Source: a virus
Direction: 5' to 3' (one strand)
Length of the DNA stretch: 64,000 nt
Virus record (IMG/VR): IMGVR_UViG_3300009008_000005
Coordinates: 116,826-180,825 of that record
The notes under the pieces are model-generated. The model did not search any database and was not told the DNA's origin. It saw only the letters and a list, made by a program, of their open reading frames with translations. Of the stretch, positions 7,194 through 18,525 are shown piece after piece. The first letter of the stretch is position 1. The number at the start of each line of letters is the position of its first letter. Both the position numbers and the translations under genes were made by a program.

Positions 7194-7496
7194 CTAGGGC
7201 CTGGGGTTGCGTGCCGCAAGTCTCTGCAACCTTGTGCCCTTGCTGAAAACCGTGTCCCCTTCTTTAGGGATGGGCCAGTCTATGTTGAAAGTAACGTCGG
7301 GTGTGACGCATACCGGGTAGCTGTTTGAACCTCGCTCCCCTAGACAGGTGACCTTTGCGTGCGTGATGTAAGGAGTAAATTCAAACTCGATATCTGCAAG
7401 CTGTTGGTCGGTGGCCCGGTCCAACACTGTCAGCTGGATGCCGCCACCCACCCCATTCATGGTGAGGTGGAGGACGACACCCTCAGACTTATACAC
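7194..7496 (-). CDS. hypothetical protein (100 aa)
   Basis: start overlaps the end of the AP2 gene; same operon. Confidence 0.55.
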   Translation of the reverse strand: MYKSEGVVLHLTMNGVGGGIQLTVLDRATDQQLADIEFEFTPYITHAKVTCLGERGSNSYPVCVTPDVTFNIDWPIPKEGDTVFSKGTRLQRLAARNPRP

Positions 7497-8823
7497 GTAC
7501 GGACTTCTCGGAGACGTGGGCGATCTGGACCAGGAGATCCATGTAGGCCTCCTGCGAAAGCTCAGATGCGTACTTCTTGGAGTAGTCCACGAGCCAGGCA
7601 GAGACCTCCTGCCTGGAGAGCGTCCCGTTGGGGGAGGCGGGTGCAGGTTCGGCGGGAGCCTCGGGCTTCTTGGTGGCCAGGAGAGACGGCTGTACCGCCT
7701 CCACCTTGACAGGCTTACGGGTGGCCGGCTTCTCCTCCAAGGTCATGAGAGCATTCGGCCTACGCTTGGACCAGCGGCGGATCGTGCAGAACTTGGCGGG
7801 CTTCTTCGTGAGGCGAGTCGTGAACTCCATGGCCCAAGTGGGGAGCTTCTCGTACCACCCCTCAGGATCTATGACACCATTGACCTCATCGATCAGTGCA
7901 CCACACCCACTGCAGTGAGTATACGAGCGGCCCCGACCAGAAGTTGCACTGCGCTCGCTCTTGTACCCACAGGGGCAGTCGATGGTGGTTCCCTTACGGG
8001 TCTTCGTGATCTTGGCCTTCTTCCCCTCCAAAGAGAGCAGGAGCTTATGGTGATCCTCAATCTCTTTCTTGCTGTGGTCATAACGGAACGGGCGCTTACG
8101 CAGACGACCGAAGTACTTCGCCAGCATGACGTCGTACCAGAGGCGTCCGGTCTTCGCATCTTTGGCTGCACCCAGGTACAACGTGAAGTTGTCGGTGCTA
8201 AGTCCGAGATCGTCCAGGTGGGTGATGATGATGTGAACGGCGTACTCTCCACGCTCGTTGGGTGCCCTGTTGACTCCCTTGTACCCATGATACTTCTTCT
8301 GGCCCGCAACATCGGGGATGGGGGTGGATACTTCGGTCTTAGGCTCCGGAGAAGCCTTGGCCTCAGCCAGAGTGGACTTGAAAACCTTGGGGTTGAATAT
8401 CGCCATCAGCTCCTCTTCAGGCTTGGCACTGCCGTCGTAGTAGACCCTTCGTCCACAACCTTCGCATCGCCAGTAGTTGAACACAGTCCCCTTCCTAGGG
8501 GCGTGGAAAGTGCACCCGCACTCGCAGGTGACATCGTGAGTACCGTCAAGCCGACCCTTAATCGACGCAGTCCCTTCTTCCGGGAGCATCATGGCCCACA
8601 CGGACTTCTCGACTTCATCCTGTGGATGGTTAGTGTCGTACCTCCCGAGCAGTAGCGCAGCACGGTCCCAAGCCATGGCGGCGTTGGGAGCAGTAAGGAA
8701 ACCACCGAGCGTGATATTGCCCGGCCTGTGAGGGGCACCGATATATGCCCTCCACTTTTTAGATGAGGAATCAAACGTAATACCGTGAAATTCCGGGAAC
8801 TCTTGCCGCTTCACTTCACCCAT
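7489..8823 (-). CDS. protein with two AP2-like DNA-binding domains, each followed by zinc ribbons (444 aa)
   Basis: FHGITFDSSSKKWRAYI...LGGF...AAMAWDRAA and YKGVNR...YLG...WYDVM; CECG/CEGCG and CPCG/CSGCG; GGAGGT SD. Confidence 0.7.
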   Translation of the reverse strand: MGEVKRQEFPEFHGITFDSSSKKWRAYIGAPHRPGNITLGGFLTAPNAAMAWDRAALLLGRYDTNHPQDEVEKSVWAMMLPEEGTASIKGRLDGTHDVTCECGCTFHAPRKGTVFNYWRCEGCGRRVYYDGSAKPEEELMAIFNPKVFKSTLAEAKASPEPKTEVSTPIPDVAGQKKYHGYKGVNRAPNERGEYAVHIIITHLDDLGLSTDNFTLYLGAAKDAKTGRLWYDVMLAKYFGRLRKRPFRYDHSKKEIEDHHKLLLSLEGKKAKITKTRKGTTIDCPCGYKSERSATSGRGRSYTHCSGCGALIDEVNGVIDPEGWYEKLPTWAMEFTTRLTKKPAKFCTIRRWSKRRPNALMTLEEKPATRKPVKVEAVQPSLLATKKPEAPAEPAPASPNGTLSRQEVSAWLVDYSKKYASELSQEAYMDLLVQIAHVSEKSVRV

Positions 8824-9350: not shown

Positions 9351-10202
9351 ATGGCCTACGTACTACTGCTCGCCCTAGCACTGGGGGAATTCGGGTCCCC
9401 ACACAATGATCCCGTTGAACTTGCGAGGCACTTCGTAGAGGCAGGCGAGGTCTCCGGTGAAAATCCGTTCCTCCTCGCAGCGGTAGCCATCTATGAATCC
9501 AGGCTAGACAATGATGAGGTCAGCAAGAAGAACGCATGTTGCATGATGCAGGTTCTGGGAGGGCGGTACGGAAATCCCTCTTGCAGTGCGATGCAGAATG
9601 ATCTGTCCCTGTGTGTCCACATTGGGGCGAGAGAACTTTCCGAGTGGAGAGCCTATAGAGGCGCTGAGACCGACGAGAACACCTTATGCCACTACAACTG
9701 TGGGTGTGTGTGCTCCAGTAATTCCCGTAAGATGTATGTCAGCGGAGTACTATGGTGGAGGGACTTCCTGTATGCAGTGGCCACGCACACCCCGAAGTCT
9801 AGAATAACGTGCACGATCCGTATCCAAGAGAAGGAAGGCGTACTAGAAGCTACGGACTCTGCGTATATCTGGAACGAAGCTATAGCCGGACATGACCGGC
9901 CTAAAATTCGGAACTATGAGGAGCACGTGAAGAAAGACTTGAAGCTCAGGCTCAAGTATCGTACATGTAACTTGAAGCATGTCGGAGCCTGGAATGGGAA
10001 GAGATACTTGCACGAGCGCTCTCCGGCCTTCGCATGCCTCACATCTTCAAGGACCTATGCGTGTGAGGAGGAGGTCTACTATGCAAGCCATGACCAGGCG
10101 GTGCAGGTTGCGCAGGAGACCCTTGAGTGGCGTAGAGAAGCGCTACAGAGAATATGGGCTGGAACATTCCTCACATTCCTGGGACTTACAACACAGGGGT
10201 AA
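9351..10202 (+). CDS. lytic transglycosylase (SLT)-like domain plus unknown C-terminal domain (283 aa)
   Basis: hydrophobic N-terminus; LLAAVAIYES (catalytic Glu position), MMQV, IGARELS, HYN motifs. Confidence 0.6.
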   Translation: MAYVLLLALALGEFGSPHNDPVELARHFVEAGEVSGENPFLLAAVAIYESRLDNDEVSKKNACCMMQVLGGRYGNPSCSAMQNDLSLCVHIGARELSEWRAYRGAETDENTLCHYNCGCVCSSNSRKMYVSGVLWWRDFLYAVATHTPKSRITCTIRIQEKEGVLEATDSAYIWNEAIAGHDRPKIRNYEEHVKKDLKLRLKYRTCNLKHVGAWNGKRYLHERSPAFACLTSSRTYACEEEVYYASHDQAVQVAQETLEWRREALQRIWAGTFLTFLGLTTQG

Positions 10203-10948: not shown

Positions 10949-11161
10949 ATGATCTGCAAGGTCATGCGTATCGGCAGCGGGACCCGTGAGGTCGAGATCC
11001 CGGACGGCTCGGCCGTCCGCAACGCCCTGACGGCGGCTCAGTTCGAGACCCGAGGCGCCTCCGTCTCCGTGAATGGCATCGAGGCCACCATGGACACGGC
11101 ACTGCAGGACGGCGACACCGTCAGTCTCGTGGCGAAGGTCGAGGGCGGCACCTCCGTCTAG
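10949..11161 (+). CDS. ubiquitin-like beta-grasp protein (ThiS/MoaD/prokaryotic Ubl), 70 aa, ends GG-TSV
   Basis: AAGGAGG SD; VEIPDGSAVRNAL...VSVNG...LQDGDTVSLVAKVEGG beta-grasp signature. Confidence 0.85.
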   Translation: MICKVMRIGSGTREVEIPDGSAVRNALTAAQFETRGASVSVNGIEATMDTALQDGDTVSLVAKVEGGTSV

Positions 11162-11199
11162 GGGGACCATACTCGTCTCGCTCCGATGAAGGAACATGT

Positions 11200-11227
11200 G
11201 GGGGAGGGGGGTTCGCCTCCCTCCCCC
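11200..11227 (+). terminator. stable TTCG-loop hairpin after the Ubl gene
   Basis: GGGGGAGGGGGG-ttcg-CCTCCCTCCCCC; no long T tail. Confidence 0.55.
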
Positions 11228-11304
11228 TAAGTTTCTCCCTAAAAGTATACCCATAAGTGGGATTATCTATATGTGTCTTGGGATGGATGGACAAGGAGGC
11301 AAGA

Positions 11305-12819
11305 ATGCCAGCAGGAGTTCAAGCAACCCGCCTACACGCCGACATGGTGTCGGTCTTGGGGGAACTCTCCTCTGAGATGAATGTAGGCATCCGAGCGGAG
11401 ACGGTGAATCTCTCTCGGTTCTTCTCGCAATTCCCCGGAACGGAGGGCGACAGCGTCAGGCTGTTCTTCCACAACGGGGAGCGTGGAACGCAGCAGGAGT
11501 TCAGCTTCGTCGTGGACGGAACTGAGTGCAAGGTCAAATTCGCCATGGCCCAGCACAATCCGAACCTCTTCGAGGAAGGGGTCGAAACCCAGCTGCGGAT
11601 CCCTGTCGGTGGCGGCGAATCCACAGACCTGATCGGTGTCTACGGAGGGACACAGATCATGTTCGGTGCAGACCTCAACAACCTCTTCACACACCCGGAA
11701 TACATCGAGGGAGATGTGACGGCCAAGGACTTGGCCAAGCACATCCTGAAGAGTGCCCTCTCCGGAATCATGGACAGCATCGAGAACCGTGGGCGGGAGG
11801 AGTTCGCAGACACCCTCATGACCATGTACAGGGCGAGCGTGGCCCTGTGGCGGGAGACCATCACGAACAACGACGCCTCGATCGACAACCACCTGCGCCA
11901 GCTGAGCGAGCTGTACACTCGCAACCAGGCCACTCGGGCGCAGATCAACGCCTTCGACGGCACCATGCAGACCGCACGGGACAAGGCGAAGGAGGAGTAC
12001 GAGAAGCTCGTCCGACTGGTTGGAACCTCCTTGGAGGAAGTCCAGGTCGTCAACCGGCGTCTGCAGCTCCGTACGTCGGAAATGCACATCGAGTACGACG
12101 GGATCGATTACAACATCGGCCGAATCGTGATCGACACCCCCATCCTCGGCAACTCTGGCGAGGTGACAATGTTCAGCTACGACGGCAGGGACCAGAACGG
12201 ATGCGCCCACCCGCACGTCAGCGGTGGTCGGGTCTGCTGGGGAAACGTGGGAGGCACGATCACGGAAGCGCTCTCCACAGGGGAAGTGCTCCAGGCTGTG
12301 TTGGCCATGCTCGCCTACCTCCAGTCGTACAACTCCGAGGATGCCTACACGGACATCCAGAACTGGGGCGATGCCTACGACCGTAACCAGGCCTGTCGTG
12401 AAGACCACAGCACGGATGAGTGCGCTCGCTGCGACAGTGAGGAGTGCCCATATCGGGAGGAGAGCCGACAGGAGTGCTTCGACGACCACACCCGTGACGA
12501 GTGTATCCGCTGCAACTCCTGTCCCCTCGCAAATGAAGCGGCAGAGAACTGCCTACGTGAACTGCTCTCGACCAACACTCTCGGTAGGTGCATGGAAACT
12601 TGCACCGTCAACACGTGCAGATTCTTCCGGAACCCTGTTCGCTGCAGAAACGTCATCGGATCCTGTCCGACTGCTTGCACTGCTGACACCTCGTGCTATC
12701 GACACCCGTCGTATTCTTCGGGTGACCCCGGCGGTGGTGGAAGTTCAGAGATCTCTGTGAGCCGCAACATGAGCATCACCGGAAGCGGTGACCAGTTCGA
12801 CATCGTGAGGAGGGCCTAA
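11305..12819 (+). CDS. prokaryotic E2 (UBC-like) domain protein with N-terminal/coiled-coil region and C-terminal Cys-rich repeats (504 aa)
   Basis: AAGGAGG SD; HPHVSGGRVCWG (His302...Cys311) matches the E2 HPN/H...C catalytic motif; sits between Ubl and JAB. Confidence 0.75.
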   Translation: MPAGVQATRLHADMVSVLGELSSEMNVGIRAETVNLSRFFSQFPGTEGDSVRLFFHNGERGTQQEFSFVVDGTECKVKFAMAQHNPNLFEEGVETQLRIPVGGGESTDLIGVYGGTQIMFGADLNNLFTHPEYIEGDVTAKDLAKHILKSALSGIMDSIENRGREEFADTLMTMYRASVALWRETITNNDASIDNHLRQLSELYTRNQATRAQINAFDGTMQTARDKAKEEYEKLVRLVGTSLEEVQVVNRRLQLRTSEMHIEYDGIDYNIGRIVIDTPILGNSGEVTMFSYDGRDQNGCAHPHVSGGRVCWGNVGGTITEALSTGEVLQAVLAMLAYLQSYNSEDAYTDIQNWGDAYDRNQACREDHSTDECARCDSEECPYREESRQECFDDHTRDECIRCNSCPLANEAAENCLRELLSTNTLGRCMETCTVNTCRFFRNPVRCRNVIGSCPTACTADTSCYRHPSYSSGDPGGGGSSEISVSRNMSITGSGDQFDIVRRA

Positions 12820-14024
12820 TGACGGGTACGACAACAACGAAGCCTACCGGAACCACCAACACGACCGGGAGCCGGGTGAACCCGGACCTGGTCAAGCCTC
12901 ACGTCTATATCATGCCCCGTGCCGATGCCAAGATCTGGCACTGGGTCCGAATGGCGACAGGTGAGGTCTCCGGCCTCGGCCTGGTCGACGTGATCGACGG
13001 ACAGATGGTCGTGTCCGATGTCTTCCTGCCCAAGCAGGAGTGCACCTCGGCGGACACGGACCTGGACCAGCAGGCGGTGGCACAGCTCATGATGGAGCTG
13101 GACAACGAAGGCGTGGACCTGGGGAAGCTCCGGTTCTGGTGGCATAGCCATGCCGACATGGAGGTGTTCTGGAGCGGGACTGACACGGGTACCATGCAGG
13201 AGCTGAGCGGGGGCGACACGTTCCTCCTCTCGATGGTCGTCAACAAGAAGCACGACCGGAAGCTCCGGGTGGACATGTTCAACCCCTTCAACATGATCCT
13301 CGACAACCTCGGGGCCAGCGTCCTCGACCTCTCCGATGAGGAGCTGAAGGAGGAGTGCAAGAAGGCGTTCGACGAGAACGTCTCCGAGGGCTACTCCGGC
13401 TACTACTCTGGGTCGACCCACAACCGCAGCGGCGGACGGTCCTCCACCAATGCCACCCACTCGGTCACCTCCGCCACACGGAGGAAGATTGGGTTTCAGG
13501 CAGGGAAAACGCCCACCTCGCAGATCTCGGTCTGGAATTCCAAGGACGGAGTGTGGGAGGACCACTACACGTACGCCGAGGGGGAGCCGAAGATCGTCAC
13601 GTCGTCGGGTTCGGTCGTCGGAGTAGGTGCGTACCTCTCCAAGGAGGCCGAGGCCATCGCAGAACTCGCCCACGAGGAAGGGTGGGGAAGCTGCATCGAG
13701 CAGCGTGGTGACGAGGACGCCAACGAGGTCGCTCCCATCGAGCCCGAGGAACCCACCGATGAGGACGAGGAGATCACGTACAAGAAGGTGGACGACATCA
13801 CGGACCTGGTCTGCGACGCCTGCGGGAACTACGTGCTGGCCCTCGACCCCGAGGACATGATCACGATGGAGGGTCCCAAGGGCACGAACCCGCTGAAGCG
13901 GCAGGACATCACCCTGTACTGCGCAGACTGCGGCGAGGCACACCACGTGAACGTCCTGATGAAGTACGTCGATGGGGAGTGGATCCCCAAGCAGTGGGTG
14001 GAGGGAATCCATGTCGAAGCCTGA
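12819..14024 (+). CDS. JAB/MPN+ (JAMM) metallopeptidase with C-terminal zinc ribbons (401 aa)
   Basis: GEVSGLG glutamate plus HSHADMEVFWSGTD = H-x-H-x7-S-x2-D; CDACG and CADCG; TAATG coupling to E2. Confidence 0.88.
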   Translation: MTGTTTTKPTGTTNTTGSRVNPDLVKPHVYIMPRADAKIWHWVRMATGEVSGLGLVDVIDGQMVVSDVFLPKQECTSADTDLDQQAVAQLMMELDNEGVDLGKLRFWWHSHADMEVFWSGTDTGTMQELSGGDTFLLSMVVNKKHDRKLRVDMFNPFNMILDNLGASVLDLSDEELKEECKKAFDENVSEGYSGYYSGSTHNRSGGRSSTNATHSVTSATRRKIGFQAGKTPTSQISVWNSKDGVWEDHYTYAEGEPKIVTSSGSVVGVGAYLSKEAEAIAELAHEEGWGSCIEQRGDEDANEVAPIEPEEPTDEDEEITYKKVDDITDLVCDACGNYVLALDPEDMITMEGPKGTNPLKRQDITLYCADCGEAHHVNVLMKYVDGEWIPKQWVEGIHVEA

Positions 14025-14697
14025 GATCGACACCACCATCTACTGGCGGCAGATGGACGTGCTGCCCATGAAGAAGGTCCTCTCGGTCCCCGTCACCGTC
14101 GTCGGTGCGGGGGCCATCGGGAAGGCCATGGTCGAGGTCCTCTCCGGGATGGGGATCAACGACATCACCGTGTTCGATGCGGACAGCGTCGAGCCCCACA
14201 ACCTTCCCAACCAGGGCTACCGGCCCTGCGACGTCGGGAAGCCGAAAGTCGAGGCGCTGGCCGAGATCGTGGAGGCCCTCACGGGATTCAAGATCAAAGG
14301 CATGAACGAGTGGTTCACGGACCAGAAGGTGTCCGAGATCACCGTGTGCGCAGTCGATAGCATGGACACGAGGATGAAGCTCTGGGAGGCCATAGCTCCC
14401 CAGCTCCCGAAGCTCTACATCGACATGCGGATGGGAGCTGAGATCGGGCAGATCTTCTATGTGAACCCGTGGAGTCCCGGCTCCAAGCGGCAGTACGAAG
14501 CGAACCTGTTCCCGAGCGATGAGGCCGTCGAGGCACCATGCACGGAGAGGGCGACCAAGTACTGTGCGACGGGTATCACGTCATTCGCAGCGGGCGGGGT
14601 GGCGAACTACCTCCGTGGTGAGGCGCTTCGTCCGCTCGTGCTGGACTTCAGGTGCGGTCAGGTCATCGATCTTCCGAAGGCCACCGAGAAGCCTTGA
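14011..14697 (+). CDS. E1/ThiF-family adenylating enzyme (228 aa)
   Basis: VVGAGAIG, DADSVEPHNLPNQ, VGKPKV, AVDSMDTR, IDMRMG; candidate catalytic Cys in EAPCTERA. Confidence 0.9.
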   Translation: MSKPEIDTTIYWRQMDVLPMKKVLSVPVTVVGAGAIGKAMVEVLSGMGINDITVFDADSVEPHNLPNQGYRPCDVGKPKVEALAEIVEALTGFKIKGMNEWFTDQKVSEITVCAVDSMDTRMKLWEAIAPQLPKLYIDMRMGAEIGQIFYVNPWSPGSKRQYEANLFPSDEAVEAPCTERATKYCATGITSFAAGGVANYLRGEALRPLVLDFRCGQVIDLPKATEKP

Positions 14698-14710: not shown

Positions 14711-14732
14711 GGGGACCCCTTCGGGGGTCCCC
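14711..14732 (+). terminator. C(UUCG)G tetraloop hairpin ending the Ubl-system operon
   Basis: GGGGACCCC-ttcg-GGGGTCCCC. Confidence 0.65.
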
Positions 14733-17577: not shown

Positions 17578-18525
17578 ATGGCGGAGAAGGCAAAAATGCC
17601 AGCCGAGGCTAAGAAGATCGAGATCCCGTTCGACTCCATCGAACTGGACAAGTACGGCCTGCGTAACAGCAGGTCTGCAATTCCCAACACGGACAAGCTC
17701 CGGGCCTCCATCGAGGCGTTCGGTCTGCTCGTCCCAATGGTCGTGTGGAAGCCCCCAGGAAAGGATTCCTACGTCCTGTGCTGCGGGTACCTGCGACACA
17801 AGGCGATCACAGAAATCCGGTCCAAGGATGCAAAGCAGTACGAGACCATCGGAGTCTCCCTGCTGGACGGTGTTCCCCTCAACGACGCACTCTGCGTCAA
17901 CCTCGAAGAGAACATCAAGAGGGAGACCCTCAACCACGCAGACCTCGCAGCCCGCATGTTCCTCCTGAACCACGGGCGCAAGATGAGCGAGACTGCCATC
18001 GCCGACAAGCTCAACGTGTCCCAGGGGTACGTAGCACGCCTCATCGGCGTGCACATGAACTGCATCGACGAAGTGCTCCAGGCTCTCCGTGAAGGCCTCA
18101 TCTCCGTGCAGCGTGCAAAAGAGCTGGCCACCCTGGATCCGGAAGAGCAGCTCACCCACCTGGAGAAGCTGCTAGACCCGGAGAAGGCCGAGGAGTTCCG
18201 GAAGAGGCTGGCCAAGAAGGTCGGGCACTCTCGTCCAGGTATCAAGGTTATCCAGGCGCAGATCAAGCAGCTGGAGAAGTACGAGGGGGACCAGGATGTT
18301 GGCTATCGGCGTGGTGCTCTCGCTGCGCTCCGCTTCTCCTTGGGTACAGCCGAGGAAATACTCCTCTTCCACCCGCCTGAGTCTGCATCAGGGTCTGCCT
18401 TGAAGAAGACCATGAAGAAGCCTGACAAGAAGAAGGTCGCCGAGAAGAAGTTCCCGACCAAGAAGGAAACAAAGAAGAAGTCTGCGAAGAAGAAGAAGCT
18501 GGTCACGAAGAGGAGCAAGTCCTAG
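17578..18525 (+). CDS. ParB/Srx-like N-terminal domain, HTH and lysine-rich tail (315 aa)
   Basis: LRASIEAFGLLVPMVV, GYLRHKA (arginine-patch position), EENIKRETLN, ETAIADKLNVSQGYV; KKSAKKKK tail. Confidence 0.8.
   Translation: MAEKAKMPAEAKKIEIPFDSIELDKYGLRNSRSAIPNTDKLRASIEAFGLLVPMVVWKPPGKDSYVLCCGYLRHKAITEIRSKDAKQYETIGVSLLDGVPLNDALCVNLEENIKRETLNHADLAARMFLLNHGRKMSETAIADKLNVSQGYVARLIGVHMNCIDEVLQALREGLISVQRAKELATLDPEEQLTHLEKLLDPEKAEEFRKRLAKKVGHSRPGIKVIQAQIKQLEKYEGDQDVGYRRGALAALRFSLGTAEEILLFHPPESASGSALKKTMKKPDKKKVAEKKFPTKKETKKKSAKKKKLVTKRSKS

Follow-up and report, generated by a model that had tools for sequence, protein, structure and literature searches.

The genome of an uncultured phage of about 181 kb, represented by the virus record IMGVR_UViG_3300009008_000005, contains a cassette encoding a ubiquitin-like protein (Ubl), an E2, a JAB peptidase and a minimal E1, which we consider to be probably a conjugation system complete in itself and belonging to the phage, able to put the Ubl on proteins and take it off again, with a role during infection in tagging host or phage proteins in phage-host or phage-phage conflict. 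Neither the target nor the direction of benefit is known. The four genes, all intact and in the same orientation, lie at 10949–14697 of the window (the whole 64,000-nucleotide stretch which was analyzed, positions 116,826 to 180,825 of the record). A preliminary interpretation made from the letters alone (the sequence-only reading) had named the four parts and had inferred that the virus carries a full write-and-erase gene set; the identities were all correct by profile, motif and fold evidence, and the inference stands with four intact genes in a phage record. Since this record is 99% complete and carries TerL and tail-sheath genes, the cassette belongs to a virus and is not host DNA. For comparison, 64 IMG/VR loci were retrieved via an alignment of the JAB gene (pattern scan of 2.9 million viral contigs), and a pattern scan of 185,579 species, each represented by a single genome, gave 18 cassette contigs, which are from MAGs and none from isolates. 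We counted in favour of a conjugation system the invariant catalytic residues of E1, E2 and JAB across dozens of homologues, the joint travel of the four genes in most of the 64 viral and the MAG loci amid changing neighbours, and gene overlaps which indicate translational coupling. Against it stand the lack of a recognized E2-docking element on the E1, the presence of HPH for HPN in the E2 and the fact that no target has been identified.

The Ubl gene (10949–11161, plus strand), whose ATG is preceded by AAGGAGG, encodes a 70-residue ThiS-like beta-grasp precursor which ends in KVEGG followed by a three-residue cap, TSV. The protein matched Pfam ThiS (8.6e-7, 29.9 bits against a cut-off of 22.5), while matches to NCBIfam ThiS, MoaD and SAMP were weak and that to NCBIfam ThiS was far below its cut-off. 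Among the matches listed, 41 of 62 Ubl homologues have a terminal GG with 0–5 extra residues and approximately 10 of the 62 end in G-A. The GG-type termini fit the JAB pre-processing which has been shown for Bil (10.1101/2023.09.26.559546).

The E2 and JAB genes overlap by one base (TAATG) and the JAB and E1 genes by 14 nt when E1 is read from the conserved-Met ATG at 14011, or by 53 nt from the ATG at 13972, which bears out the overlaps reported from the letters; the one-base and 14-nt overlaps suggest translational coupling of E2, JAB and E1 and were therefore counted for a self-contained system. Between the Ubl and E2 genes is a hairpin with a 12-bp G+C stem (11200–11227, plus strand; MFE -32.5 kcal/mol, z -3.5, equalled by 1 of 200 shuffles), possibly a partial terminator or RNA-stability element, a function which is inferred. 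It is stronger than the hairpin after the E1 stop codon (14711–14732, plus strand), which has a 9-bp G+C stem and a UUCG loop and for which the segment 14700–14745 folds at -29.6 kcal/mol with a z of merely -1.8 against shuffles. The latter had been taken to close the operon; it exists but does not qualify as a canonical intrinsic terminator. No U-tract lies downstream of it, and it was not called in the terminator scan.

The E2 gene (11305–12819, plus strand) has an ORF open from 11257, with the likely start at ATG 11305 preceded by AAGGAGG, and encodes 504 residues. These comprise a variable N-terminal domain (aa 1–135), a long coiled coil (aa 140–236), a UBC core (aa ~220–356) containing HPH at 302–304 and the catalytic Cys311 (nt 12235–12237), and a Cys-rich helical tail (aa ~360–455). 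The motif HPHVSGGRVC (HPH-x6-C), noticed earlier as HPHV..VC, is invariant at H302, P303, H304, C311 and G313 in sets of 40 and 124 homologues. The UBC fold was confirmed in three ways: by profile search of the PDB, where the best match was eukaryotic UBE2L3 (E 0.003), its HPN and Cys lining up with the phage motif; by Foldseek with an AF2 model (pLDDT 86), where essentially all of the matches listed were E2 enzymes or E2 complexes; and by structural match of residues 220–356 to UBE2S (VIA Z 7.5). The protein thus meets the criteria of the UBC/E2 superfamily (UBC fold with an HPN-type motif some 7 residues ahead of the catalytic Cys), although it uses HPH where canonical E2s use HPN. No match for the E2 was found in Pfam, PHROGs, PADLOC or NCBIfam, Pfam UQ_con giving a weak sub-cut-off match to 3 of the 40 family members, and a word-indexed protein search returned only the E2 itself whereas a full HMMER scan returned 764 representative clusters. 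The N-terminal domain is hypervariable among homologues and when modelled alone reached a pLDDT of 55.6, too poor for structure search. No usable match to the Cys-rich tail was obtained in the ESM Atlas; this tail could be an Fe-S or Zn binder whose function has nothing to do with choosing targets.

The JAB/JAMM metallopeptidase (12819–14024, plus strand; 401 residues) has an MPN+ domain at aa ~25–160 which satisfies the E...HxHx7Sx2D criterion with E49, H109, H111, S119 and D122 (nt 12963–13184). All of these residues were invariant in 36 homologues and aligned with the catalytic residues of Rpn11 and Rpn11-like proteins in a profile search of the PDB (4e-9 to 5e-9), so that the JAMM site is intact as first read; Prok-JAB and the PADLOC JAB model matched weakly. 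The C-terminal half of the protein is variable, and its closing CxxC...CxxC element was found only in this phage.

The E1 gene (14011–14697, plus strand) encodes 228 residues from a conserved Met whose ATG (14011) lies behind GGAGGG; this is Met14 of an ORF open from ATG 13972. The protein is a single ThiF-type adenylation domain (Pfam ThiF 1.4e-22; NCBIfam ThiF far below its cut-off), with G45, G47, G50, D69, N77, K92, D129, R134, D151, R153 and C190 invariant. Cys190 (ORF numbering; EAPCT, nt 14539–14541) was present in 34 of 34 aligned sequences and in 98% of 64, and hhalign placed it opposite ThiF C184 and MoeB C187 and found no Cys at the ThiF/MoeB CxxC zinc positions. The intact adenylation site, the candidate Cys and the absence of CxxC pairs described initially were thus all upheld. 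In the profile search of the PDB the best match was UBA5 (1.5e-18), with the BubCD E1 at 4e-11. No UFD or any other known E2-docking element was found on the protein.

Taken together, these features suggest a pathway every step of which is inferred from sequence and family knowledge, without biochemistry on the thioesters, isopeptide products or any other step. The Ubl would be made with its cap (GG-TSV), which JAB would cut off to bare the Gly-Gly. Like ThiF, MoeB and UBA5, the minimal E1 is probably a homodimer; it would adenylate the C-terminal Gly and then hold the Ubl on Cys190 as a thioester before the Ubl is handed to Cys311 of the E2. Without a partner E3, the E2 probably selects targets through its hypervariable N-domain, coiled coil and Cys-rich tail and would join the Ubl to a target lysine by an isopeptide bond, and the tag would be removable by the same JAB.

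As the best family matches of Ubl and E1 are ThiS and ThiF, the cassette could alternatively be a sulfur-carrier system, in which adenylation of the Ubl is followed by formation of a thiocarboxylate (as in ThiS/ThiF, MoaD/MoeB, TtuB/TtuC and CysO/Mec+) that serves for thiolation of a cofactor, tRNA or DNA, with JAB only maturing the carrier. There is precedent in operons of ThiS/MoaD, JAB and E1 for sulfur chemistry (Iyer 2006, PMC1779556, Table 1 rows 4a-e), and the phage has 37 tRNA genes. We nevertheless judge this very improbable, since an E2 with an invariant catalytic Cys occupies the E2 slot in 17 of the 18 MAG loci and, as judged by clustering, in 44 of the 64 viral ones, the E1 lacks a rhodanese domain, searches of the 181-kb genome found neither a PP-loop thiolase nor a rhodanese or cysteine desulfurase, and a Pfam scan found no ThiG, MoaE or CysM-type acceptor enzyme near the cassette. 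The lack of CxxC pairs and of sulfur enzymes, together with the capped Ubl, means that the criteria for ThiS/ThiF and MoaD/MoeB carriers are not met.

The conjugation system which we favour was compared with known families, and appears from its motifs and gene order to resemble Bil in its working yet to fail membership of Bil, Bub, CBASS Cap2/3 and PRTRC. Type I and II Bil are bacterial anti-phage ubiquitination operons, corresponding to Iyer 2006 classes 6d/6c (10.1101/2023.09.26.559546; 10.1101/2023.09.04.556158). In BilABCD four separate genes are ordered Ubl-E2-DUB(JAB)-E1, the BilD E1 has inactive and active adenylation domains with a CYS domain of ~80 aa inserted in the crossover loop, the BilB E2 has a conserved His after its conserved Cys but not the classical HPN histidine, and the JAB both pre-processes a capped Ubl and cuts conjugates (10.1101/2023.09.26.559546). 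The phage cassette shares the separate genes and their order, a Ubl with a short C-terminal cap which JAB would remove (cleavage being inferred), the absence of an E3, with an E2 presumably picking targets directly, and presumably a Cys-thioester cascade. It does not meet the E1 criterion, as its 228-aa protein has one ThiF domain with the Cys in a short crossover loop and is not an IAD-AAD-CYS pseudo-dimer, nor the E2 criterion, as it keeps a eukaryote-like HPH-x6-C-x-G and not the C...H (CEHH) signature. It differs further in the coiled coil and Cys-rich tail of the E2, in its ThiS-like Ubl and in being mostly virus-encoded. Minimal E1s of the UBA5-UFC1 and ThiF/MoeB types likewise have a single adenylation domain and a crossover-loop Cys, but the phage E1 lacks zinc CxxC pairs, a rhodanese and a recognizable UFC1-binding tail, and shares one operon with a UBC-fold E2 and a JAB. 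Bub (6E/DUF6527) uses an E2 Ser and an E1 Tyr to form oxyesters, has Ubl-E2 and JAB-E1 fusions and a DUF6527 serine protease, and its E1, which has no CYS domain, consists of an adenylation domain that forms homodimers (PMC11601596). The phage cassette has in common with it a bacterial-type set of Ubl, E1, E2 and peptidase and an E1 without a CYS domain, but its genes are separate, the catalytic Cys is invariant in both E1 and E2 and no DUF6527 gene was seen among the scanned neighbours. PRTRC (a ParB-related, ThiF-related cassette of plasmids and ICEs; NCBIfam TIGR03734-03742) shares a ThiF-type E1 near ParB on a mobile element. Its models were matched far below their cut-offs by the phage E1 (PRTRC_ThiF, 1.5e-11, 44.1 bits against 144.75) and by the ParB of the window, for which PRTRC_parB was the best match (9.8e-12, 44.2 bits against 278.6), while Ubl, E2 and JAB matched no PRTRC model, so the PRTRC criteria were not met.

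The E1 also resembles the E1 part of CBASS Cap2 (PADLOC E1-E2 models down to 3e-13; NCBIfam cap2_3, 1.4e-13), and JAB peptidases reverse Cap2 conjugation. On this basis the cassette might serve counter-defence, the JAB erasing host-made conjugates (Cap2 cGAS conjugates, Bil tags) and E1, E2 and Ubl acting as decoys which saturate host enzymes. We give this next to no credence, as JAB alone would suffice for erasure yet four genes with intact catalytic sites are co-conserved, and the Cap2 similarity is limited to the generic adenylation fold, the PADLOC matches lying within the adenylation region only. The criterion for Type II CBASS Cap2/Cap3, an E2-E1 fusion beside a CD-NTase, is not met either, since E2 and E1 are separate genes and no CD-NTase was seen among the scanned neighbours.

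The cassette is by homology a widespread family and not peculiar to this phage, with 764 representative E2 clusters and the 64 IMG/VR loci, most of which have Ubl-E2-JAB-E1, mostly in that order. Nothing besides the four genes is conserved around the viral cassettes, where the surroundings change from locus to locus, and a Pfam scan of six neighbouring proteins in the present phage assigned none of them to a family. An AAA ATPase gene and ParB were rejected as conserved partners, neither recurring by other cassettes and ParB being absent from the other 84 loci; the link to the nearby AAA ATPase suggested earlier thus finds no support. In blastn and tblastn searches with the cassette, JAB and E2 against 50,697 GenBank phages no match was found; E1 alone found relatives there, distant ones. 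A literature search leaving out most subscription journals found no published description of a phage Ubl-E2-JAB-E1 system.

In the survey of phage versus host genomes called for in the sequence-only reading, the family proved widespread in viral contigs and also occurred in the 18 MAG contigs. Homologous cassettes are carried on Myxococcota MAG chromosomes (GC 64–65%), and in the four Myxococcales loci examined the neighbours are conflict-type genes (SIR2-STALD, Schlafen/AlbA_2, PD-(D/E)XK, Sacsin/NOV). The TerL of the window was not found in five cassette-carrying MAGs. These neighbours make defence or exclusion a live rival to counter-defence. Under that rival, a Bil-like immune module carried by the phage would tag structural proteins of competing phages (superinfection exclusion) for competition between phages and not for host takeover or counter-defence. 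Such a cargo would also accord with the BilABCD gene order and capped Ubl (10.1101/2023.09.26.559546), with a hypervariable E2 N-domain, which an arms race would suit, and with a quick E1 tree in which the window groups with Myxococcota MAG copies and two large phages (support 89, not decisive). This was the only E1 phylogeny, and no direction of transfer is claimed. We think this explanation unlikely, given that 2.9 million viral contigs yielded 64 loci and the 185,579 species genomes 18, without an isolate among the 18, that the Bil E1 and E2 features are lacking and that in related phages the cassette lies within replication/early modules, near D5 primase, DnaB and SNF2, and not in moron or lysogeny regions. 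Viruses appear to be the main carriers of the family.

In crAss-like phages and Flavobacterium phage FpV4, which are cultured or reference phages, the replication module has a JAMM peptidase (HSHx7SGxD) directly upstream of a ThiF-type E1 of ~230 aa. These pairs are annotated as 'metalloprotease' and 'thiamine biosynthesis protein ThiF'. They are only distantly related, with an E1 ~30% identical to the phage E1, and the E2 and Ubl profiles detected nothing beside them; these versions may use a different or unrecognizable E2. In 11 of the viral loci the E2 slot contains a protein of 590–630 aa, mostly without the HPH..C motif, so the E2 Cys may not be essential in every version.

The same phage encodes, 34 kb upstream of the cassette, a second, short E2 with HPH and Cys, called active in the absence of biochemistry, and a Cys-less E2-like protein with HPH and Asp (hhalign probability 97% for these paralogues). 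Several E2s of this phage may therefore share a single E1 and a single Ubl. A broader proposal, which we put forward tentatively and with more doubt than conviction, is that tailed phages of many lineages own host-independent Ubl signalling, in which one E1 and Ubl feed several E2s, including a Cys-less UEV-like partner, and during infection place removable tags, possibly chains, on proteins of the host or the virus, so as to seize control of the cell or disarm immunity. If true, viruses of prokaryotes would have their own equivalent of the ubiquitin genes and E2s which eukaryotic viruses carry, and the phage cassette would be a possible source of the cellular versions in Myxococcota.

To our knowledge, prokaryotic Ubl conjugation has been characterized solely as host machinery, namely CBASS Cap2/3, Bil and Bub in bacteria and SAMPs in archaea. 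The cassette represents a distinct family, marked by a minimal E1, a JAB and an E2 of eukaryote-like HPH type into which accessory domains are built. In the evolution of E1-E2 cascades, the pairing of a classical-type E2 with a one-domain E1 that has a crossover-loop Cys would represent an intermediate. If active, the cassette would give phages a reversible protein-tagging tool, and would raise the question of what a bacterial virus ubiquitinates.

The cassette of four co-oriented genes for a ubiquitin-like protein (Ubl), an E2, a JAB protein and an E1 (10949-14697) is phage and not host DNA, since the window also holds terminase, tail-sheath and other phage genes and both of its flanks are phage. 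Besides the large terminase and the tail-sheath-like protein, the window encodes ParB, an AAA ATPase and helicases. The source record is an IMG/VR virus of 180,825 bp rated 99% complete, the window being its bases 116826-180825, and the whole genome carries 37 tRNA genes, mostly clustered outside the window at genome positions 67,053-77,000. The first 40 bases of the genome recur at 180,753, 72 bases from the end, giving a terminal overlap of 72 bases despite the classification of the record as linear by IMG/VR. An SLT-like transglycosylase lies just 5' of the cassette at 9351-10202 (Pfam 4.7e-4), and on the minus strand at 7489-8823 there is a 444-aa protein with a weak PHROG match to an HNH-endonuclease (2.6e-6).

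The Ubl (10949-11161, 70 aa) passed the gathering score of Pfam ThiS (8.6e-7), and its C-terminus reads KVEGG-TSV. Among the homologues listed, 41 of 62 had a terminal GG followed by 0-5 extra residues and approximately 10 ended in G-A. A 12-bp hairpin was found 3' of the gene at 11200-11227 (-32.5 kcal/mol, z -3.5). A UUCG hairpin is present 3' of the E1 gene; no U-run stands behind it and a terminator scan made no call there.

The reading frame of the E2 is open from 11257, and an ATG at 11305 behind AAGGAGG gives a protein of 504 aa which was not recognized by any of the curated libraries searched (Pfam, PHROGs, PADLOC, NCBIfam). When 1.84 billion representatives were scanned in full with HMMER, 764 relatives were obtained at E<=1e-3, and the motif HP[HN]-x(4-9)-C was found in 145 of the best 150 of these. 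Residues H302, P303, H304, C311 and G313 were invariant in alignments of both 40 and 124 sequences. The top solved-structure match of the family profile was human UBE2L3 (E 0.003), the alignment spanning helix 1 through the beta-meander, with Cys311 at the position of the catalytic Cys and HPH at that of HPN. The 124 sequences were also used to build an AlphaFold2 model (mean pLDDT 86), for which essentially every Foldseek match listed was an E2 enzyme or a complex containing an E2, at probabilities reaching 1.0. An independent aligner superposed residues 220-356 on UBE2S with a Z of 7.5, a value which taken alone is middling. Outside this core the protein consists of a domain at aa 1-135 with just 10%-22% identity even between close relatives, a helix some 80 residues long (aa 140-218) and a helical Cys-rich tail in which C364, C373, C376, C381 and C391 were invariant in the 40-sequence set.

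The JAB (12819-14024) has E49, H109, H111, S119 and D122, all invariant in 36 homologues, and its profile aligned, catalytic residues in register, with Rpn11 and with an Rpn11-like protein from an archaeon (4e-9). None of 35 aligned homologues shares the CxxC...CxxC element (CDACG...CADCG, 13900-14024) at the end of this JAB. The E1 matched Pfam ThiF at 1.4e-22. Its frame is open from 13972, and translation probably starts at 14011, since Met14 is nearly invariant and preceded by GGAGGG. The nucleotide-binding glycines, D69, N77, K92, D129, R134, D151, R153 and C190 (ORF numbering; C177 when counted from Met14) are invariant. Profile-profile alignment placed C190 on the crossover-loop cysteine of ThiF (C184) and MoeB (C187) and found no Cys at the position of their first CxxC. 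The closest solved relative was UBA5 (1.5e-18), with BubCD and Cap2 more distant. E2 and JAB overlap by 1 base, and JAB and E1 by 14 nt.

Three features support a single scheme of conjugation and removal, every step of which is inferred: catalytic sites that are intact and co-conserved, a capped Ubl and genes that are translationally coupled. The capped Ubl would be matured by JAB, adenylated and carried as a thioester on E1 Cys190, then passed to a thioester on E2 Cys311 and onto lysine, from which JAB could take the tag off again. Pre-processing of a Ubl by a JAB has been shown experimentally for BilC and BilA (10.1101/2023.09.26.559546). The alternative that the cassette serves as a sulfur carrier is weakened by the near-universal presence of the E2 and the missing rhodanese domain, and a search of the genome found no thiolase, rhodanese or desulfurase genes.

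The same phage has two further adjacent E2-core genes outside the window (genome 93,079-94,446, 34 kb upstream of the cassette), on the genome stretch L090. One (L090:4698-5447, 249 aa, hhalign probability 97%) keeps the HPH and the catalytic Cys, while the other (L090:4080-4625, 181 aa) keeps the HPH with Asp at the position of the Cys; together they resemble an E2/UEV pair.

Among known systems, Bil has gene order and logic in common with the cassette, although its defining E1 (IAD-AAD-CYS) and E2 (C...H) features are not met. Bub differs in chemistry and gene fusions, and CBASS Cap2/3 in architecture. A PRTRC identity was rejected, as the PRTRC matches of E1 and ParB in NCBIfam were sub-threshold and the Ubl, E2 and JAB had none; the best match of the ParB-like gene (17578-18525) was PRTRC_parB at 9.8e-12, far under the cut-off. 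No description of a phage Ubl-E2-JAB-E1 system turned up in a full-text literature search, and Iyer et al. 2006 describe from phages only the lambda-type tail-assembly pair of a Ubl (TAPI) and a JAB (TAPK).

A pattern scan with JAB alignment recovered 64 loci on IMG/VR contigs of 5-200 kb. Most had all four genes detected, mostly in the order Ubl-E2-JAB-E1, and by clustering JAB was present in 62, E1 in 60 and E2 in 44, with 36 having the main Ubl cluster. Eleven viral loci (L046-L048, L050, L052, L060-L063, L065, L066) have a protein of 590-630 aa between Ubl and JAB, which has no family match and mostly lacks HPH..C. It is an E2 that has diverged very far, or another kind of transfer protein. 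Single viral variants carried a second short E2 directly after E1 (L025), two JAB-E1 pairs with two Ubls (L030) or two tandem JAB genes (L039). Apart from the cassette no other gene was conserved around the viral loci; the only recurrent neighbours were D5-type (15 loci) and DnaB-type (10) primase-helicases and SNF2 helicases (9), and the viral cassettes therefore sit in replication modules. The AAA ATPase and ParB of the window were discounted as partners, having no counterparts in other loci (84 were checked for ParB). Searching 50,697 GenBank phage records with E2 and JAB by tblastn gave no match. The E1 has distant relatives, at about 30% identity, in Flavobacterium phage FpV4 and in crAss-like phages, where a JAMM protein precedes each of them and primase, UDG and exonuclease genes adjoin. 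In two cultured or reference phages, FpV4 (L068) and crAss-like cr85_1 (L069), the JAMM peptidase is directly 5' of a ThiF-type E1 of ~230 aa within replication modules; the annotations read only hypothetical/metalloprotease for the peptidase and ThiF for the E1.

Scanning one genome per species for 185,579 species gave 18 cellular loci, all in MAGs and all with the whole cassette or the portion fitting on the contig. Homologous cassettes lie in GC-rich bacterial chromosomes on Myxococcales and Deltaproteobacteria MAG contigs (L072, L073, L075, L077, L078), and two MAGs have two near-identical copies each. GC was 64%-65% in the three of four examined Myxococcales loci where it was measured, and the neighbours there were cellular or conflict-type (SIR2-STALD, Schlafen/AlbA_2-HATPase, PD-(D/E)XK, Sacsin/NOV, FGE-sulfatase), while a Deltaproteobacteria locus had ETF genes on its flanks. 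The window's terminase was not detected in five cassette-bearing MAGs. A quick E1 tree grouped together the window, the Myxococcota copies and two large viral contigs, with a support of 89, which is not decisive. A phage function, for example takeover or counter-defence, is favoured, without being established, by how common the cassette is in phages and by its place in their replication modules. Its setting in Myxococcota islands and its resemblance in layout to Bil leave a role in defence or exclusion plausible.
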